From: a virus
Lineage: Duplodnaviria; Heunggongvirae; Uroviricota; Caudoviricetes
IMG/VR virus record: IMGVR_UViG_2648501400_000014
Direction: 5' to 3' (one strand)
Length of the DNA: 5,888 nucleotides
Shown here one piece after another: positions 1 to 5,888 of the stretch. The notes beneath the pieces are model-generated. The model saw only the letters and a program-made list of their open reading frames with translations. It was not told the DNA's origin and ran no database searches. Both the position numbers and the translations under genes were made by a program. How positions within the stretch are numbered: the first letter of the stretch is position 1; every line of letters starts with the position of its first letter.

Positions 1-501
1 CAGCAGCATGGCTGCAGAACAGGCCGTGTCATTGCACAGTGCCCAGACCGGCTTCTGCTGACGGAGGCGGTAAATCATGTCAGCGCAGTCAAACGCGCCG
101 GCGGCCTGCCCGCCCGGACTGTCAATGTCCAGCAGTACGCCCCGCACCTGGCTATCCGCCATTGCCTGCTGAAGACAGGCGACAATGCCGTCATAGCCTG
201 TCATTCCGGAAAATGGCCGCATCCCCCCCAGCCGGTGCACCAGCGTGCCGGTCACCGGCAGTACAGCAATACCGTTCACCACCCGGTAAACACGGGCCGG
301 TCGTTTACCTCCGGCCATGTACTCGTCCGTTTCAGCCAGCATTCCGGGAGCATCAAGCTGTACCTGCTGCTGTGGTACCGAAAGACTTGCTGCCCCCATC
401 TCGCGCCCGAGCGCGCAAAAGAAAACCCGCGCATAGGCGGGCTCCAGAAGCAGCGGTTCATTGAATGCTGCGGCAATAATGTGTGAAAGATTACGTCTCA
501 C
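1..501 (-). CDS. C: Head maturation protease / scaffold gpC-like (S49 ClpP/SppA-type serine protease); N-terminal 167 codons only, gene runs off the left window edge
   Basis: The minus-strand frame with codons on plus triplets 1-3, 4-6 ... 499-501 is open across the whole interval. My hand translation reads VRRNLSHIIAAAFNEPLLLEPAYARVFFCAL...VNGIAVLPVTGTLV...GMTGYDGIV...VLLDIDSPGGQAAGAFDCADMIYRLRQQKPVWALCNDTACSAAMLL. This aligns colinearly with lambda gpC as I recall it (...FNEPLMLEPAYARVFFCAL...NGIAVLPVSGTLV...GMTGYNGII...ILLDMDTPGGMVAGAFDCADII...KPVWALANDMNCSAGQLL). The only in-frame start is GTG at 501-499, with GAGGAG about 10 nt upstream, overlapping the portal stop by 11 nt. The 6-frame track misses it because there is no ATG; track ORF 276..476(-) is in a different frame. 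Gene order after the portal matches lambda. Confidence 0.85.
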   Translation of the reverse strand, partial: MRRNLSHIIAAAFNEPLLLEPAYARVFFCALGREMGAASLSVPQQQVQLDAPGMLAETDEYMAGGKRPARVYRVVNGIAVLPVTGTLVHRLGGMRPFSGMTGYDGIVACLQQAMADSQVRGVLLDIDSPGGQAAGAFDCADMIYRLRQQKPVWALCNDTACSAAMLL

Positions 502-2083
502 GGGGTGTTGTCTCCTCTTCCGGCCTGCGACTCTCCGCTATCTGCTGCTGATACGCCTGCGCTATCCACACCGGACGTGAGAGTCCGGCTTTTTCCCGCT
601 CTGCAGATTCCCTGACCTGCTGGCGGAAAATGTCCTGATAATCCTCGCCCATCAGCGCCAGCTCTTTCTCATACGTGCTCAGTCCGGCCTCAATGCGCAT
701 CACCGATTCCTGAACCTCCTTGAGCCCGTCAATGGCCATTCTTCCGGCACCAATCCACTCTGCCCGTGACCAGGCTGATCGCGCCTGATAAAAATCAAAA
801 CGCGCCCGTGGCGGACGGATAATCCCCCGAAGAAGTGCCTCTTCCAGCCAGCAGGAAAACATCTGCGTGGCCAGCCGGGCCGCAATAAATTTTCGCCGCC
901 CCATAAAATAGCGCCACGACTCATTGGCAGAGGCCCTGGCACTTGAATAACTGACCTTCGAGTAATCACGGGACAACTGTTCGTAGGAAACGCCAAGACC
1001 GGCGGCGATATACCGCAGCAGCGCCTGTTCAAGCGCCGAAAATCCATTGTCTGAATCCTGCGCAGTCTGTAGTTTCAGATCATCCCCGGGGAAAAGGTGC
1101 GGAATTTTGACACCACCCAGCGTCACGTTATTCGTGTCATACCAGGTGGAGAACTTATCCAGAATATTAATAAGCGGATTATCCTTCTGCCCCTGCGGCG
1201 CACCGGCGATATATTCAAAGGCCTTTTCGGTATCAAGGTCACTTTCAATCGTCGCTGCATACATCGCCTTCACTATGGCCGACTGAAGCTGTTTTGCCTG
1301 CAGGGAATCGAGCATCTTCAGCCGTTCCATTACGCTGTAAAACTGATTGGCCCCACGGGTCTGCCCGTCCTCCACCGGCTCGAAAATATGCAGCATGGCC
1401 GGACGCCCGGTGGGAAGTTCACGCGGGATCCGTTCCCATCGTCCACTCCCGGAGAACGGAAAATCATCCTCACAGATATGGTACGCAACGGCACGACCAT
1501 ATCGATCGACCTCCACACCGGCCCGCAGAAAACGGTTCCCCATACCGTGTCCTGGCGTGTCCACCCGTTTCGGACTCACGGCTTTAAAACGCGTACGGAA
1601 TAACTGCGTGGTTTCCGTATCCCAGACCGGCTGCACAAAGATTTCGCCGTTAAACGCATGAACGCCCACACCTTCACGGATAAATTCCGTGAACGTGCGT
1701 TTTCCTTCCACGTCGATCTCGCCAGACATCCCTTCGGCGTATTCCGACCAGGCCGCCTCCACCTCATCGACAAAGCTTTTTGCTGCGGTCTCCCGCATCC
1801 CCAGCCAGCGCCAGTTCGGACGGTAGCTGATAAGAAACATATGCCCGACAATGTGATCCTTATGCAGTGCCACCGCATTGGCCGCTATTCCGTTATTGCG
1901 CACCAGATCATCTGCCCGGGCATTCCCCAGACGCAACGCAGGCAGCAGGGCTGCATCGGCACTCTGCGCCGGTGGCAACCACTCCGCCATTTGCCCGCCA
2001 AATCCTGCACCGCCCCCGTTGTAGCTGAGACTCTCACGAAGCGGAACGCCGTTCACATCAATCAGGACAGGCGTTCGTTTCAT
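491..2083 (-). CDS. B: Portal protein (lambda gpB family)
   Basis: 530-aa ORF from the track. It has long colinear stretches shared with lambda gpB as I recall it, for example GNARADDLVRNNG, FNGEIFVQ, LFRTRFKAVSPKR, FEPVEDGQTRGANQFYSVMERLKMLDSLQ, SAIVKAMYAATIES, LQTAQDSDNGFSALEQALLRYIAAGLGVSYEQLSRDY, ARASANESWRYFMGRRKF and WIGAGRMAIDGLKEVQESVMRIEAGLSTYEKE. Length is close to lambda gpB (about 533 aa). The start ATG overlaps the W stop (ATGA at 2080-2083), and the gene sits between W and C as in lambda. Confidence 0.95.
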   Translation of the reverse strand: MKRTPVLIDVNGVPLRESLSYNGGGAGFGGQMAEWLPPAQSADAALLPALRLGNARADDLVRNNGIAANAVALHKDHIVGHMFLISYRPNWRWLGMRETAAKSFVDEVEAAWSEYAEGMSGEIDVEGKRTFTEFIREGVGVHAFNGEIFVQPVWDTETTQLFRTRFKAVSPKRVDTPGHGMGNRFLRAGVEVDRYGRAVAYHICEDDFPFSGSGRWERIPRELPTGRPAMLHIFEPVEDGQTRGANQFYSVMERLKMLDSLQAKQLQSAIVKAMYAATIESDLDTEKAFEYIAGAPQGQKDNPLINILDKFSTWYDTNNVTLGGVKIPHLFPGDDLKLQTAQDSDNGFSALEQALLRYIAAGLGVSYEQLSRDYSKVSYSSARASANESWRYFMGRRKFIAARLATQMFSCWLEEALLRGIIRPPRARFDFYQARSAWSRAEWIGAGRMAIDGLKEVQESVMRIEAGLSTYEKELALMGEDYQDIFRQQVRESAEREKAGLSRPVWIAQAYQQQIAESRRPEEETTPRET

Positions 2084-2286
2084 AACCTCACTCCCAGCGG
2101 ACGACGGCGACGCCGGGTTGTCCCCAGTACCGACTCCGCATCATTGATCGCCCGGTTAAGCTCATCCAGAGAAGCCGCCGTATATTCAATTCTGCGACCA
2201 TCTTTCTGGACAGACACCACCCGTTTACCGGTTAATAAATCAAGGCGCGCCTGACGCAGCGCCTGCAGTTCAGCGACTGTAACCAT
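2080..2286 (-). CDS. W: Head-tail joining / head completion protein gpW
   Basis: 68-aa ORF, the same length as lambda gpW. The motif LxxLLTGKRVVSVQKDGRRIEYTAASLDEL and the C-terminal RRRRR tract match lambda W as I recall it ([26 protein letters not shown] ... QRRRG). It lies between terminase A and portal B and overlaps the A stop by 17 nt. Confidence 0.9.
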   Translation of the reverse strand: MVTVAELQALRQARLDLLTGKRVVSVQKDGRRIEYTAASLDELNRAINDAESVLGTTRRRRRPLGVRL

Positions 2287-4198
2287 TCACTCCTCCGGAC
2301 AGCTTCGCTGCCAGTTCTTTCAGGGTTGGCCGGGTCGTCTCTTCTTCCCGGGATTTTGCCAGTACAGCCAGATCAAGCTGCCAGCGTTGCACGGACACAC
2401 GTAATGCCGCGTAGGCATACACCAGGCAGTCCAGCGCTTCGTTACGCCGCTTTTTGTTATCCCACAGCAGACGCATCTTTCCTTTTTCCCACTTCTCCAC
2501 AAGCTCTTCCGCCACCAGTTGCTGCGCCTCTGTCTGCGAAAAAATCTCCGGATCATCAGGAAAACGGATGGCATACGACGTGGCTTCATCCGCAGGAGTG
2601 GGATCGGCTTTCATACGGGCATAGAGAATTTCTTTTGCGGTGTCCGTTCCCACTTCACACAGATACACGCCCCGCTGATTGCGGGTTTTTGGCATGGTGA
2701 TCACCGGCTTGCCATAGACAGATGCGCCTTTTACCGGCAGCACCCGGAAAACACCGTGTTTTTTTGATCTCTGATAAACAATTTCACCATCGATCCCCCC
2801 GGTGTCCCAGCAGACACGGGAAATAGTCATTTCGGTGCCATCCGCATGGCGGTATTTTTTGTTGATCGCCGCATCCACACGTAACAGCGTCTCTTCCTCA
2901 TCAGGACGCCCCATAATGATGATTTTATCCACCAGAAAGGCTTCCTCTCCCGGAGCCCATCCCCAGACATACATCTCAAAACGGTTTCGCTGCGAGTCAA
3001 TGCCCGCCGTCAGATAAACCACCCGGGCAGGCACCGCCGCCGTGTAACGCACCACCTTATCCATCAGTACCTGGTGATCGAGTTTTTCGCCCACGGCCTC
3101 TTCCCAGGTCTCGCCCAGCGTGGTGTTCACAAAGGTTTTCAGGCCGTTGGGATCTTTCAGTGCATCCAGCCAGTCATAGACAATCTGTACCCAGGTGGTG
3201 AACGGACTGTACGCCGTCCAGATATGGAACGTGATGGAGCGCGGCGGCGGAATTTCATCACCCCGGGCGCTGAAAAACGTCAGACCGTCACGGGTCCACA
3301 TGCCCGTGTTTTCACAGATCCACCGCCCGTTGTTCTGGTCAAGCTCAGACTGATGGATCACGCAGCCATGATGTTCACAGAGGTAGAAAACGCTTTCGGG
3401 ACTGTCCTTCTCCCATTTAAGCCCAAAAGGCGTGGACTCATCGCCAAATTTCAGATACTGCGCCTCCCCACAGTGCGGGCAGGGCACATAAAAACGCATA
3501 AAATGCGCCGACTCGTTAGCCGCTTTTTCGATCTGGCAGGTGCCTTTGATTTTAGGCGTCGAGCCGCGAATGGATTTTGGCCACACCGACCCCTCAATAC
3601 GCTTATCCCCCAGCAGGGTTGGCGAGCCCTCTTTTTCGACATCCGGCTCGAACGAGGAAAGTTCGTCATAGCAGACCACGTCCACGGATTTTTCACGGTA
3701 GTTTTTGGCGGCAGCGCCGCCCAGGCACCAGAAACCGACGCCCGATGAAAAGCGTTTCAGCGTGAGGGTATTATCACGATGTTTACGCCCAAACCACGGT
3801 GCAAGATCGAGTAAAACCGGCACATCCCTGATCGTGGGTTCCACATGAGATTTCATAAAATCTTCAGCAGCAGAATCCGTGGGCTGGAAAAGAAGGCTGT
3901 TGCGTGATTTATGCTCAATAAAATAAGCCTCCACTCCCAGCAACATCTTTGTATAACCAACACGGGCAGATTTAATCAGATTAACAGTGCGGATCCGGTC
4001 ATTCCCCATGCTGTTCATGATGGCAACCTGAAACGGCAGTGTTTCCCACCGCCCCGGGGTGTAAGATGACTCTTTCGGAAGGTAATAATGTCGATCTGCC
4101 CACTGAACTGTCGTCAGAGGGACAGGAATTTTTAGCGCAAGGAGGCCGGTTGCTATCGCTCCTGCAGAATTAGCCGCCCTCAGTTCGTCTGAAATCAT
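2270..4198 (-). CDS. A: Terminase large subunit (lambda gpA family; ATPase plus endonuclease)
   Basis: The track ORF 2270..4240 (656 aa) matches lambda gpA along its whole length as I recall it: [20 protein letters not shown], Walker-A-like [135 protein letters not shown] place the start at the third in-frame ATG (4198-4196, MISDEL...). It is preceded by AGGTGGA, gives the same N-terminal spacing to the YYLPKE motif as lambda gpA, and gives a 29-nt overlap with Nu1 (lambda has about 26). The upstream ATGs at 4240 and 4216 lack an obvious Shine-Dalgarno. Confidence 0.93.
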
Positions 4199-4718
4199 CA
4201 ATCCACCTGCGCACATTCTCACCGGCTTCAGAAGCCACATCGGATGCTTTCGCGATTTCAGTTTTCACAGCATCAAGATGTGCGGGTGATATATCAGGGT
4301 ATTTACGCTGCAGTGTCTGAGGGACACGGACAAGGATCCCTGATATATTCTGTGCCACTCGCTGAAAGATGTAGGTAAATAACTCCGTCTCGAGGACAAG
4401 GCCTTCCTCACGAGCATTTTTCAGCTTCTGTGCATCGGCCTGTGCCTTCGTCAGTCGGTAACGTTCGTAATCAATGGTGCCGGGCTGAAGGTCTGATTCG
4501 CTGGCAGCCCTCAAATCCTCGATCTCTTTACGGAGTTTTTCGTTTTCAATATCAGATTCCCTCTGCGCATACCACTGAATGGCAGCAGTTGTATCAAAAA
4601 CTGATTCAGTCCCTTTCCCTCCACCAGAAACTAGTGGTAACCCCTGACTCTGCCAGGCGGTGATGGTCCTGACATCAACGCCAAAAATATCGGCCAGTTT
4701 TTTCTTATTGACGTTCAT
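4170..4718 (-). CDS. Nu1: Terminase small subunit (lambda gpNu1 family; N-terminal winged-HTH cosB-binding domain)
   Basis: 182-aa [106 protein letters not shown] is colinear with lambda Nu1 ([103 protein letters not shown], from memory). The C-terminal third is diverged. GGGGGAG lies just upstream of the ATG. It is the first gene downstream of cos, as in lambda. Confidence 0.93.
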
Positions 4719-4737
4719 ACACTCCCCCGGGAACCAG

Positions 4738-4748
4738 AAAGGATCTGA
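4738..4748 (+). repeat. cosB R1-like element (AAAGGATCTGA); candidate terminase small-subunit binding site
   Basis: Exact 11-mer aaaggatctga. Its reverse complement recurs at 4780..4790 and a 10/11 copy lies at 4838..4848. Position (between cosN and the Nu1 start) and alternating orientation parallel lambda R1/R2/R3. In phage orientation it reads TCAGATCCTTTCT, resembling lambda R1 CGTTTCCTTTCT. Confidence 0.6.
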
Positions 4749-4779
4749 AAATGGCGTTTTCTAACAAAAACAGCCTTTG

Positions 4780-4790
4780 TCAGATCCTTT
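4780..4790 (-). repeat. cosB R2-like element (inverted copy of AAAGGATCTGA)
   Basis: tcagatccttt is the exact reverse complement of 4738..4748, giving an 11-bp perfect inverted repeat with a 31-bp spacer. Analogous to the inverted lambda R2/R1 pair. Confidence 0.6.
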
Positions 4791-4813
4791 TATATTTTTA
4801 AAATTCTATTGAT

Positions 4814-4826
4814 AATCAAACAGTTA
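4814..4826 (+). promoter_or_regulatory. IHF-consensus site (I1-like) inside cosB
   Basis: aatcaaacagtta fits WATCAANNNNTTR exactly. It sits in an AT-rich tract between the R3-like and R2-like elements, which is where lambda I1 sits. Confidence 0.5.
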
Positions 4827-4837
4827 AAAAGAAGAAG

Positions 4838-4848
4838 AACGGATCTGA
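4838..4848 (+). repeat. cosB R3-like element (aacGGATCTGA)
   Basis: 10/11 match to the 4738..4748 element in the same orientation. In phage orientation it reads TCAGATCCGTTCTTCTTC, which contains the CCGTTCTTCTTC string that I recall at lambda R3. Confidence 0.55.
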
Positions 4849-4887
4849 TTTTTCCCTAAAAATTTTCATAAATAGCGAAAACCCGCG

Positions 4888-4899
4888 AGGTCGCCGCCC
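4888..4899 (-). other. cosN: 12-nt cohesive-end sequence (GGGCGGCGACCT on the phage top strand), terminase nicking site
   Basis: The plus strand reads aggtcgccgccc, the reverse complement of the lambda cohesive end. A surrounding core of about 44 bp (4859-4905; phage orientation ACGGGGCGGCGACCTCGCGGGTTTTCGCTATTTATGAAAATTTT) is identical to the lambda cos sequence as I recall it. It lies about 170 bp upstream of Nu1. Confidence 0.85.
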
Positions 4900-4935
4900 C
4901 GTAGCCTGCCGGATCGCCGGAAAGGACCCAATAAA

Positions 4936-4952
4936 ATGATAATAATTATCAT
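4936..4952. repeat. cos-proximal palindrome atgataat-a-attatcat (cosQ/I2-region element)
   Basis: Perfect 8-bp inverted arms with a 1-nt centre, about 37 bp on the right-end side of cosN. Lambda carries a similar palindrome (GATAATGATTATC) at the equivalent place, from memory. Confidence 0.5.
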
Positions 4953-5137
4953 TTATATAAATACCATCACACATCCCACGTACACCATAAAACCACGACA
5001 AATAATCAATTTTGTCCAAGTCATGCATTAATTGATCTGTGTCAACTTAACGTAAAGACATCTTAAGACAATACAAATCAGCAGCACTGAACACGGAAAA
5101 ACACAATGTCATCAAAAAATAAAGCTTCCCAAACCAG

Positions 5138-5278
5138 ATGATTAATCAAATCCATATTGCCCTTGAACGTAAGGGATCGGGTAATTTTTCGGCATGGGTT
5201 ATTGAAGCCTGCAGGAGAAGGCTGGCAACAGATGCAAAGCACCTGCGCCCGGCCAGCATGAAAAATAACGAGAAATGA
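5138..5278 (+). CDS. Small hypothetical protein (46 aa), ribbon-helix-helix-like helix-loop-helix remnant; possibly truncated or pseudogenised
   Basis: Hand-translated ATG..TGA ORF not in the supplied track: MINQIHIALERKGSGNFSAWVIEACRRRLATDAKHLRPASMKNNEK. It matches the C-terminal part of a small ORF at the equivalent lambda right-end position (…RNIRFPNQMIEQINIALEQKGSGNFSAWVIEACRRRL…, from memory). No Shine-Dalgarno is evident; the start overlaps the stop of an 11-codon upstream ORF (5106..5141) in an ATGA arrangement. Confidence 0.4.
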   Translation: MINQIHIALERKGSGNFSAWVIEACRRRLATDAKHLRPASMKNNEK

Positions 5279-5410
5279 ACGTTCGGTTACAGGAACCGGT
5301 AGCTACTGTCTTCTAACAATATTTCATCTTCATATCCGGCGAAACAAGACTTTACCCTGCAGGGATGTACTGAATAGCAACAGAGTGATAATTAACTTCT
5401 GATAAAATAA

Positions 5411-5737
5411 TCAGGGTGCTGAAGGACTAAAGATAAATGTTTTCTTCACGCCTTTACGCGGCTTGTCCTTCTCAAATCGCCATTTTGCCATCGCCTTTAC
5501 AACCTGCTCATCAAACAGATGGTGCGGCTCTGAACGGATAAACTCAATTCGGGTGACAGTACCATCAGCACCAATATCAAACTTCACATCAACCCGTCCC
5601 TTTATATAATTTGCCGCGGCATAGGCCGGATATTGTGGTAATGCCTTAACCAACTGTCGAGGCATATCTGTTTTATGTTGCGTACAGCCCATAACCAAAG
5701 AAGACAACAAAATAATTAACGGAAGATTTCTTTTCAT
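5411..5737 (-). CDS. Predicted lipoprotein consisting only of a TonB C-terminal-like domain (about 108 aa); candidate phage moron
   Basis: Track ORF 5411..5752(-). The start is more likely the internal ATG at 5737, giving MKRNLPLIILLSSLVMGC: a basic n-region, hydrophobic core and a lipobox-like VMGC with Thr at +2. The remainder, LPQYPAYAAANYIKGRVDVKFDIGADGTVTRIEFIRSEPHHLFDEQVVKAMAKWRFEKDKPRKGVKKTFIF, aligns with the E. coli TonB C-terminal domain (…[71 protein letters not shown]…), sharing PQYPA, G.V.VKFD, DG.V, F.E.V..AM..WR.E..KP. There is no TonB-like transmembrane anchor or Pro-rich spacer. Stop is TGA at 5413-5411. Confidence 0.8.
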   Translation of the reverse strand: MKRNLPLIILLSSLVMGCTQHKTDMPRQLVKALPQYPAYAAANYIKGRVDVKFDIGADGTVTRIEFIRSEPHHLFDEQVVKAMAKWRFEKDKPRKGVKKTFIFSPSAP

Positions 5738-5757
5738 TTTTATTCCCGGCATAGATA

Positions 5758-5774
5758 AGAATAAGTCTTATTCT
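5758..5774. promoter_or_regulatory. Palindrome agaataag-t-cttattct immediately upstream of the lipoprotein gene (candidate operator or 5' UTR hairpin)
   Basis: Perfect 8-bp inverted arms with a 1-nt spacer, ending 21 nt upstream of the 5737 ATG on the coding strand. Confidence 0.4.
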
Positions 5775-5829
5775 AACAATGCAGCCCTGTCGGTCATTAG
5801 ACTGGCCCCCTGAATCTCCAGACAACCAA

Positions 5830-5876
5830 TATCACTTAAATAAGTGATAGTCTTAATACTAGTTTTTAGACTAGTC
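5830..5876. promoter_or_regulatory. Cluster of palindromes (tatcactta-aa-taagtgata; tagtct..agacta; actagt; gactagtc): candidate operator sites
   Basis: Read directly: a 9-bp-arm inverted repeat at 5830-5838/5841-5849; tagtct (5848-5853) paired with agacta (5868-5873); the self-complementary hexamer actagt (5858-5863) and octamer gactagtc (5869-5876). All lie about 100-140 bp upstream of the lipoprotein start. Confidence 0.4.
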
Positions 5877-5888
5877 ATTGGAGAGCAG

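Follow-up and report, generated by a model that had tools for sequence, protein, structure and literature searches.

Anatomy of the right end of a lambda-like prophage carrying a predicted TonB C-terminal domain lipoprotein gene beside cos

The last 989 bases (4900-5888) of the stretch of 5,888 nucleotides analysed here, referred to as the window, appear to form the right-arm end of a lambda-like Escherichia coli prophage, with late transcription running on the complementary strand. Instead of a single acquired block, the segment comprises four parts of differing origin, namely a cos flank containing cosQ, a DUF3950 gene, an accessory gene encoding a lipoprotein with a TonB C-terminal domain (TonB_C) and the end of an IS2 element. 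This four-part anatomy is held with high confidence, and a lambda-type right end with one accessory gene and an IS2 tip is the probable explanation of the segment as a whole. Anatomy, homologies, patchy distribution, purifying selection and fold were all observed in the course of the analysis.

The architecture of this right end is already known, and a near-identical sequence is annotated in E. coli O127:H6 strain E2348/69, whose prophage (1.295-1.301 Mb) exhibits 99.5-99.9% identity over window positions 291-5797 and encodes TonB family and DUF3950 proteins identical to those of the window. Unlike the window, the E2348/69 prophage has no IS2 at the site and its head genes are truncated left of window position 291. 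At least 80% of the window was found in 246 complete E. coli genomes, with identities of 97-99.5% among the matches listed, and the relatives and the IS2 sequence point to E. coli or Shigella as the probable host. The features of the right end and of the adjoining packaging site are as follows.

4170-4718, minus strand: Nu1, the terminase small subunit (Pfam Phage_Nu1, E = 1.9e-85)
4719-4887, minus strand: cosB, with three putative Nu1-binding R-type repeats containing GGATCTGA
Within cosB: putative R sites R1 (4740-4748), R2 (inverted, 4781-4789) and R3 (4840-4848); repeat families D1, I1 and I2
4888-4899, minus strand: cosN cohesive end, the reverse complement of GGGCGGCGACCT (alignment and phage 21 annotation)
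4900-5119, no strand: conserved non-coding cos right flank, 35.9% GC, aligning with lambda 48262-48502
4923-4929, minus strand: cosQ heptamer GGGTCCT, identical to lambda 48473-48479 (alignment)
5126-5797, no strand: mosaic block, 93% identical to Stx1a phages and JLK-2012
5138-5278, plus strand: DUF3950 (YlcI-YnfO-type) protein, 46 amino acids (Pfam DUF3950, 67.7 bits, cutoff 25)
5411-5737, minus strand: predicted TonB_C lipoprotein, 108 amino acids (Pfam TonB_C, PF03544, 57 bits, cutoff 24.6)
5770-5797, minus strand: weak candidate promoter of the TonB_C gene (-35 ATGACC, 16-nt spacer, extended -10 TG-TAGAAT)
5798-5888, plus strand: IS2 left end reading inward, 91 bases, 90 of 91 identical to the start of K-12 IS2A

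Packaging site and base composition

The elements that define a lambda-type cos are present, comprising the cosN 12-mer, the cosQ heptamer and three cosB R sites between cosN and Nu1. The 12-nt sequence of cosN is the same in the window, lambda and phage 21, and lies at 4888-4899, the position implied by the initial annotation; lambda bp 48502 corresponds to window position 4900 in the alignment. The lambda heptamer at 48473-48479 is that of lambda cosQ, and phage 21 has a cosQ feature at the position equivalent to that of the window. In lambda and phage 21, R3, R2 and R1 lie at positions that align with the R-type repeats, but the core sequence differs, CAGATCC in the window against CGTTTCC in the lambda cosB R site. 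The Nu1 of the window is 82% identical to gp1 of phage 21. Together, cosB, cosN and the flank at 4900-5119 with its cosQ make up the packaging site.

Homology to lambda extends to window position 5212 (lambda 48169-48502), and megablast against lambda-type phages yielded 83-86% identity over 4859-5096. In close E. coli relatives of 97% identity the match across the cos flank ends at 5116-5119. The most AT-rich part of the right end, 4900-5119, had been regarded as cargo; it is conserved and homologous to lambda 48262-48502, and is therefore not cargo. The accompanying idea of a conserved core at cos, where mosaic segments are joined, was borne out by strain 2013C-3264, which carries the same right end on a different Nu1, with a breakpoint near 4859. 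Two open reading frames (ORFs), one of 70 amino acids at 4816-5028 that spans cosN and one of 54 amino acids at 5078-5242, were rejected as genes, both being without a family match, and a search of 4600-5888 against Rfam (E <= 1) identified no RNA families.

The contrast between an AT-rich right end and GC-rich structural genes, as initially described, is real. The G+C content is 40.6% (402 of 989 bases) at 4900-5888 against 54.8% at 1-4718, with 56.2% in the portal gene and 48.8% in Nu1, and the hand counts previously given (36/60 at 1981-2040, 17/60 at 4921-4980 and 29/60 at 5521-5580) are exact. GC3, the codon measure used here in place of host codon adaptation, is 0.59-0.61 in the portal and terL genes, 0.47 in the DUF3950 gene and 0.40 in that of the TonB_C protein. 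A two-segment likelihood model of GC yielded a log-likelihood gain of 44.1, against a maximum of 7.6 in 200 permutations, which places the step far beyond chance. The model places the change best at 4512 or 4682, with a 2-lnL support interval of 4485-4756, so that the break falls near the start of Nu1 and not at cosN, where the compositional boundary had been drawn; forcing the break to 4899 reduced the gain to 30.2. The drop begins within Nu1, left of cosN, and the 181 bases of cosB to the left of cosN (4719-4899) already have a G+C content of 37.6%. Inside the AT-rich block, the gene module has 42.5% and the cos region 36.7%, a difference that was not significant (Fisher p = 0.06).

The TonB_C gene has a G+C content of 43%, the lysis genes 50-52% and the head and tail genes 54-60%. 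Lambda exhibits a similar profile, with 53-58% from Nu1 to B and 40.1% between the end of Rz and the right end, and those of E2348/69 and phage 21 are lambda-like too. The contrast is the standard composition of lambda-type phages, in which the head genes lie above the E. coli average and the interval from Rz to Nu1 lies well below it. Low GC beside cos is by itself no evidence of cargo, and GC-rich head genes are no sign of a GC-rich host. The head genes of lambda are equally GC-rich, and the host of 55-60% GC suggested earlier, such as Klebsiella or Enterobacter, is unsupported because all close relatives, including every close match listed, are from E. coli. The compositional finding is of little weight; an AT-rich Rz-to-Nu1 interval with an accessory slot is textbook lambda architecture.

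Gene content between cos and IS2

The DUF3950 gene, antisense to late transcription, is a conserved cos-adjacent gene and not the cargo that it had been taken for. Its product matches all 30 of the 30 profile positions of PF13132 and also PHROG 949, scoring 20 bits against the narrower NCBIfam model YlcI_YnfO_N, below the cutoff of 30. The complement strand of lambda (~48112-48243) encodes an intact homologue of 44 amino acids, 63% identical and unannotated in lambda, and homologues also occur in the closest relatives of the window, whereas none was detected in the right ends of phage 21 and Perceval. Between the window and lambda, pN is 0.19 and pS 0.94, with synonymous sites saturated. The literature searched contained passing mentions of DUF3950 only.

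The TonB_C lipoprotein gene is the sole accessory gene of 4900-5888, and is exchangeable. Presence of the segment throughout related phages, which the initial annotation had named as an argument against cargo, holds for 4900-5232 and fails for 5233-5797. An extra gene between otherwise adjacent genes, as expected of a moron (an additional transcription unit of a phage genome, as understood by Juhala and Hendrix), is found in the TonB_C gene and not in 4900-5232. The proposal of acquired cargo stands for this gene alone, and is unsupported for the cos flank, the DUF3950 gene and the IS2 end. In relatives that are 97-98% identical up to approximately 5116, the sequence diverges progressively within the DUF3950 gene, 5233-5797 is absent and a different segment of 466 bp with an ORF of 45 amino acids takes its place. 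In JLK-2012 and the Stx1a phages, which share the mosaic block, the module adjoins an unrelated HNH/terminase packaging system. The block is cut by IS2 in the window and runs approximately 297 bp further in E2348/69. The TonB_C module was found in 415 of 5426 E. coli genomes (~8%), with O157, O26 and O111 Stx-phage backgrounds among the carriers, and only five of the 5426 have cos and the module contiguous as in the window.

A 70% identical allele of the protein is present in phages 21, Perceval and ev017, and a Klebsiella phage encodes a 41% identical relative. Inspection of four records (those of JLK-2012, phage 21, Perceval and this Klebsiella phage) placed the gene after the lysis genes in each, and in the window it occupies the Rz-to-cos slot, where lambda has bor. 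The right end of lambda (Rz - bor - lambdap78/79 - cosQ/cosN) resembles that of the window in having an outer-membrane lipoprotein as an accessory gene in this interval and a DUF3950 ORF adjoining cos; its lipoprotein, however, is Bor and is encoded on the opposite strand, whereas the TonB_C lipoprotein is on the late strand. Relatives are annotated in phage 21 (CPT_21_73, 'TonB C-terminal domain protein'), Perceval (LF82_160, 'TonB fragment') and CP-933N ('partial tonB-like membrane protein'), all like the window protein in length (108 amino acids), lipobox and TonB_C domain, lysis-to-cos position and orientation. Phage 21 and Perceval, unlike the window, carry bor in addition to the TonB_C gene, and the window protein is a separate allele (dS ~1.5) whose gene has IS2 inserted 60 bp ahead of its start codon.

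The last 91 bases, previously counted as phage cargo, are IS2. This IS3 family element begins with TAGACTGG at 5798, representing the terminal inverted repeat and adjacent leader, and the match to E2348/69 ends at 5797; its transposase genes and 5-bp target duplication fall beyond the window. The prophage-IS2 junction was absent from GTDB representatives (one genome per species, exact search) and from complete E. coli genomes. The candidate promoter abuts this junction and matches the consensus at 9 of 12 positions plus the TG; the number of such sites in the region did not exceed that in shuffled sequence, and the promoter is a weak lead only. A scan of 4700-5888 yielded no terminator-like site, so that none is predicted for the TonB_C gene, and the predicted RNA fold downstream, between the convergent genes, was no better than that of shuffled sequences (z = 0.4 and 0.7). 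In the LF82 lysogen, transcription of the homologue in Perceval exceeds the prophage background 8-fold (PMC9928086).

The predicted TonB C-terminal domain lipoprotein

The 108-residue protein, for which there is an alternative upstream ATG at 5752, scored 57.1 bits against TIGR01352 (cutoff 27.1) and matched the E. coli TonB C-terminal domain (CTD) in the PDB at E = 1e-16, over TonB residues ~153-235. It is 38-44% identical to TonB CTDs. The AlphaFold model has a pLDDT of 87.6, and Foldseek superposed it on 2gsk_B (TonB with BtuB) and 2grx_C (TonB with FhuA) with rmsd values of 1.0 and 1.1 Å, at a TM score of 0.88-0.92 as normalised by target length. The match to TonB includes the last strand, residues 94-103 of the phage protein. 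Residues 1-18 are predicted, by pattern match only, to be a lipoprotein signal peptide with the lipobox VMGC (MKRNLPLIILLSSLVMG-C18). Cys18 is invariant in an alignment of seven sequences (relatives 42-70% identical), and the lipobox cysteine is retained in most of 17 wider relatives. The mature protein would consist of a complete TonB C-terminal domain following a tether of ~8-10 residues. It has neither the N-terminal transmembrane anchor for coupling to ExbB/ExbD nor the proline-rich spacer, and scored 50-74 bits against full-length TonB equivalog models with cutoffs of 265-448, and so cannot be classed as a TonB. An origin by capture from E. coli tonB was rejected because the CTD identity is only ~38-44% and other Enterobacterales contain lipoproteins that are more closely related. 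The dN/dS ratio of 0.13 indicates purifying selection which, with the conserved lipobox and the expressed homologue, marks the gene as functional and not a relic.

Two wider accounts of the right end were weighed. The view that 4900-5888 as a whole is a single moron-like cargo, acquired horizontally and placed beside cos, in a phage of a host of 55-60% GC, agrees with a GC drop that is both real and strong, with the sharing of 5126-5797 at 93% with otherwise unrelated Stx1a-type phages and with a recombination joint in the cosN-proximal DNA. Nevertheless, this account is improbable and has largely been refuted already: 4900-5212 is homologous to the right end of lambda, DUF3950 occurs in lambda and the closest relatives, the terminal 91 bases belong to IS2, the GC break (4485-4756) is left of cosN, the head genes of lambda are as GC-rich and the close matches are all from E. 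coli. A more sceptical account would recognise no cargo at all, low GC simply reflecting non-coding packaging or regulatory DNA (cos, IHF bending sites and spacers) in which the ORFs are spurious or decaying. GC does reach its minimum (36-37%) in the cos region, which is non-coding, the 4816-5028 ORF is spurious and homologues bear database labels such as 'TonB fragment' and 'partial tonB-like'. However, the low dN/dS of the TonB_C gene, the pN of the DUF3950 gene alongside saturated synonymous sites, the conserved lipobox, the confident and complete TonB_C fold, transcription of a homologue in a lysogen and patchy presence among near-identical prophages together render an absence of cargo highly improbable.

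Possible role as a membrane-tethered TonB decoy

A threonine at position +2, with no aspartate, would direct the lipoprotein to the outer membrane, where the protein may bind the TonB boxes of TonB-dependent transporters. Because the transmembrane anchor and proline-rich spacer are missing, it would be incapable of energy transduction and would act as a competitor of the TonB of the host. Such a decoy would damp TonB-dependent entry by phages such as T1 and phi80, group B colicins and microcins. The mechanism is plausible, though its chances are put at somewhat below even. A rather more tentative suggestion is that this lipoprotein and its relatives in phage 21, the Stx1a phages, CP-933N and Klebsiella phages represent a natural dominant-negative TonB; it is as tentatively proposed that, on the inner face of the outer membrane, this would fill the TonB boxes of many transporters and confer broad protection upon the lysogen. 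If true, protection from TonB-dependent phages, colicins and microcins would be achieved via a shared energy-coupling step and not via a single receptor, which would constitute a simple new form of exclusion or colicin tolerance.

Overexpressed fragments of TonB provide the nearest experimental parallel, being likewise TonB domains in the periplasm without the energy-coupling N-terminus. As summarised in a preprint, periplasmic fragments 33-239, 103-239 and 122-239 inhibit the activity of the TonB system (bioRxiv 10.1101/2020.01.05.895219), and such fragments inhibit transport by FhuA and FecA in a dominant-negative manner. They are soluble, overproduced laboratory constructs, whereas the phage protein is predicted to be lipid-anchored and is naturally expressed. 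Cor of phages phi80 and N15 and Llp of T5 are phage lipoproteins that interfere with FhuA and exclude other phages (PMC11436027, PMC9586334). Their likeness to the TonB_C lipoprotein is one of proposed functional analogy, with no relationship in sequence or fold, and they act on one receptor, whereas a TonB_C decoy would interfere at the TonB-box step, which transporters share. Searches of the literature for phage-encoded TonB, a TonB decoy or phage 21 TonB found no functional study, and PADLOC returned no defence-system match for either the TonB_C or the DUF3950 protein. A strong dominant-negative TonB would cost a lysogen iron uptake, a consideration that counts against a decoy. Since the gene is co-directional with the late operon and no terminator is predicted, it could be mainly a late gene rather than one of lysogenic conversion.

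Other functions for the lipoprotein were weighed against the decoy. As a spanin-like or accessory late protein, it would have its site of action at the outer membrane or peptidoglycan and its time of action at lysis, not in the lysogen, and a full-length match to PHROG 1267 ('Rz-like spanin', category lysis, E = 3e-42), a position downstream of the lysis cassette in the same direction in every phage inspected and the lack of a terminator between the gene and late transcription are all consistent with this. The PHROG label is probably positional, however. By definition, o-spanins are short, proline-rich lipoproteins that pair with an i-spanin, whereas u-spanins are lipoproteins bearing a transmembrane segment at the C-terminus. 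The TonB_C protein folds as a globular TonB CTD and has neither a hydrophobic nor a transmembrane segment at its C-terminus; moreover, the same prophages already possess Rz-type 'lysis protein' genes, phage 21 is annotated with both an i-spanin and an o-spanin, close relatives with the same lysis genes are without the TonB_C gene and a homologue is expressed in an uninduced lysogen. A role in lysis is quite unlikely on this evidence.

Service to host physiology or virulence, for example through peptidoglycan binding or modulation of a particular transporter, by a phage-borne copy of a chromosomal enterobacterial family is rather unlikely. Raoultella and other genera also encode short lipobox-TonB_C proteins amid ordinary chromosomal genes, which counts against the decoy and points to a housekeeping function in the periplasm that is independent of phage exclusion. 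These relatives, 27-52% identical and in non-phage neighbourhoods, are found in Raoultella, Klebsiella, Serratia, Erwinia and Pantoea, and the slot in lambda and phage 21 also holds bor, the gene of a serum-resistance lipoprotein. The TonB_C domain nevertheless keeps the strand that TonB pairs with TonB boxes, so transporter binding may remain its simplest activity.

Organisation of the late genes and the cos site

The architecture of the window is already known, and an almost exact copy of its sequence is already annotated in RefSeq. The following features were recognised.

491-2083, minus strand: portal
2080-2286, minus strand: W-type head-tail joining protein
2270-4240, minus strand: terminase large subunit
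4170-4718, minus strand: Nu1
4719-4887: cosB, with three GGATCTGA-containing repeats placed as R3, R2 (inverted) and R1
4888-4899, minus strand: cosN, the reverse complement of GGGCGGCGACCT, aligned with the joined lambda ends
4900-5119: conserved, non-coding cos-flanking DNA, with the window's lowest GC content (35.9%)
4923-4929: cosQ heptamer GGGTCCT, placed by alignment with lambda
5138-5278, plus strand: DUF3950 protein of 46 aa (Pfam, 67.7 bits)
5411-5737, minus strand: lipoprotein of 108 aa, with signal peptide (VMG-C18) and TonB_C domain
5798-5888: left end of IS2, 90 of 91 positions identical to K-12 IS2A

A prophage of E. coli O127:H6 E2348/69 is 99.5% identical to window 291-5797, and at least 80% of the window is present in 246 of 5426 complete E. 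coli genomes. In this closest relative (E2348/69, L002 4354-4802) an S49 peptidase gene (gene C-type) is truncated and fused to a truncated NlpC/P60 tail gene; the head and tail genes between the two have been deleted and the prophage is therefore defective. Window bases 1-290 still match intact relatives.

Alignment to the joined ends of lambda placed lambda bp 1 at window 4899 and bp 48502 at 4900, with homology extending to window 5212 (lambda 48169). The core of the cosB R sites is CAGATCC in the window, compared with CGTTTCC in lambda and CGTGTCGG in phage 21. The gp1 of phage 21 is 82% identical to Nu1 of the window, the differences clustering in the first ~35 residues, the DNA-binding helix-turn-helix. 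From these comparisons, the window looks like a carrier of a third cosB/Nu1 packaging specificity.

Lambda-type phages are 83-86% identical over window 4859-5096 (megablast), and the match to 97%-identical relatives continues as far as 5116-5119. Profile searches with a 70-aa ORF spanning cosN yielded no family match. The non-coding stretch at 5011-5089, lying between cosQ and the start of the DUF3950 gene, is conserved with lambda 48320-48399 to about the same degree as the cosQ-cosN core; neither an Rfam family nor a strong promoter match was found within it.

Base composition and the position of the break

The initial annotation described 4900-5888 as an AT-rich, moron-like segment acquired beside a conserved cos core; the observation is confirmed, and its interpretation is supported in part. 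Hand counts of G+C at 1981-2040, 4921-4980 and 5521-5580 were reproduced exactly (36/60, 17/60 and 29/60), and GC content was 54.8% over window 1-4718 against 40.6% over 4900-5888. A two-segment GC model gave a log-likelihood gain of 44.1, far above the maximum of 7.6 among 200 permutations, and the contrast is therefore real. The break had, however, been misplaced to the right of cos. The best-fitting change points were 4512 and 4682, with a 2-lnL support interval of 4485-4756, and forcing the break to 4899 reduced the gain to 30.2. The 5' end of Nu1 thus marks where the AT-rich block begins, and the block also covers cosB, which lies to the left-arm side of cosN. Within the block, conserved cos DNA did not differ significantly in GC from the gene module (p = 0.06); composition by itself does not tell cargo from core in this block.

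The portal, terminase large subunit and Nu1 genes have GC contents of 56.2%, 53.4% and 48.8%. Lambda has the same pattern of GC-rich head genes (Nu1 53.1%, A 54.0%, B 58.2%) and an AT-rich right end (40.1% from the end of Rz; 42.6% for bp 1-190). In the E2348/69 prophage the Rz-to-Nu1 interval is 37-46% GC, the lysis genes 50-52% and the head and tail genes 54-60%; the Rz-to-Nu1 interval of phage 21 is 45.3%. The mean GC content of E. coli is approximately 51%. On these figures, GC-rich head genes are a property of the lambda lineage and no sign of a Klebsiella or Enterobacter host, for which the earlier suggestion has no support.

The accessory gene and its mosaic joints

Only the TonB_C gene fits the description of cargo; 4900-5119 is conserved cos flank, 5798-5888 is IS2, and the DUF3950 gene is real and conserved. 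The complement strand of lambda (~48112-48243; L003 3613-3744) contains next to cos an intact 44-aa DUF3950 ORF, MIEQINIALEQKGSGNFSAWVIEACRRRLTSEKRAYTSIKSDEE, which is unannotated in RefSeq NC_001416. Its product is 63% identical to that of the window (pS 0.94, with synonymous sites saturated; pN 0.19). The closest relatives have YlcI/YnfO-type versions at this position, and no homologue was found within the stretch examined of phage 21 and Perceval.

Relatives that are 97-98% identical up to ~5116 diverge gradually inside the DUF3950 gene, and in place of 5233-5797 they have another segment, 466 bp long and containing a 45-aa ORF. Of the 5426 complete E. coli genomes, 415 contain the module at 5280-5797, but it is contiguous with window-type cos and Nu1 in just five of them. 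In phage JLK-2012 and Stx1a phages it is present at 93% nucleotide identity, adjoining an HNH endonuclease and an unrelated terminase. Phage 21, Perceval and ev017 have a 70% allele of the TonB_C gene, and a Klebsiella phage has a 41% relative. The gene lies downstream of the lysis genes in JLK-2012, phage 21, Perceval and the Klebsiella phage, the four records inspected.

E. coli 2013C-3264 encodes identical DUF3950, TonB_C, Rz, RrrD and holin proteins, with this shared right end joined near window 4859, between cosN and R3, to a different Nu1 of lambda length. This join bears out the proposal that the conserved cos core is a mosaic joint and implies, from sequence, recombination within the cosN core.

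Insertion between otherwise adjacent genes agrees with moron status for the TonB_C gene, but a terminator scan and RNA folding revealed no terminator of its own. Its composition is distinct from that of the lysis and head genes, though not from that of its immediate neighbour. The only candidate promoter (5797-5770) is weak (9/12 plus an extended -10; scan not above shuffles), and IS2 is inserted against its -35, 60 bp upstream of the start codon. With the element in place, the late operon upstream is separated from the TonB_C gene, cos and the head genes; the prophage-IS2 junction was absent from the 5426 complete E. coli genomes and the GTDB representative genomes searched. Indirect support for moron status comes from the Perceval homologue LF82_160 ('TonB fragment'), whose transcription in the LF82 lysogen exceeds the prophage background 8-fold and which the authors class among the morons (PMC9928086).

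The TonB-domain lipoprotein

The alignment of the lipoprotein with residues ~153-235 of E. coli TonB is free of gaps (E = 1e-16) and includes the PQYP motif; the protein has Leu at the position of TonB Q160, where Q160L is presumably a functional suppressor allele. Its AlphaFold model (pLDDT 87.6) superposes on TonB in complex with BtuB (2gsk_B, rmsd 1.0 Å) and FhuA (2grx_C, rmsd 1.1 Å), including the final strand (residues 94-103), the counterpart of the strand by which TonB pairs with the TonB box. As it has neither a transmembrane anchor nor a proline-rich spacer, the protein was rejected as a true TonB. The database label 'fragment' is misleading, since dN/dS is 0.13 against both alleles and Cys18 is invariant across relatives 42-70% identical.

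Residue +2 sets lipoprotein sorting (the Lol rule), and Thr at this position predicts sorting to the outer membrane. The TonB domain, ~8-10 residues off the inner leaflet, could there occupy the TonB boxes of transporters without delivering energy. A preprint (bioRxiv 10.1101/2020.01.05.895219) describes inhibition of the TonB system by periplasmic TonB fragments. The likely benefit would be that TonB-dependent phages are excluded and group B colicins tolerated, by analogy with the FhuA-blocking lipoproteins Cor and Llp; unlike these, the TonB_C lipoprotein would act on the shared TonB-box step. No experimental test of the protein was found in the literature searched, and PADLOC returned no match.

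A late or lysis role is the alternative favoured by PHROG 1267, which matches the protein over its full length and is labelled 'Rz-like spanin' (category lysis). Neither the fold of the protein nor its domain content is that of a spanin; the label probably reflects gene position, a mis-annotation that could spread. The selection and expression data are at odds with the gene having no function at all. The protein may instead have a physiological role common to the chromosomal members of a wider family of lipobox-TonB_C proteins (107-133 aa), some of which, 27-52% identical, lie outside prophages among ordinary chromosomal genes of Raoultella, Klebsiella, Serratia, Erwinia and Pantoea. A phage lysozyme is nearby in only one of 15 loci (Serratia, L025). 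Neighbours of these chromosomal relatives (L012 5001-5402; L016 4998-5333; L016-L030) include ahpCF, GST and GGDEF genes in one setting, and in another a regulator of the LacI type with small proteins of the periplasm or outer membrane.
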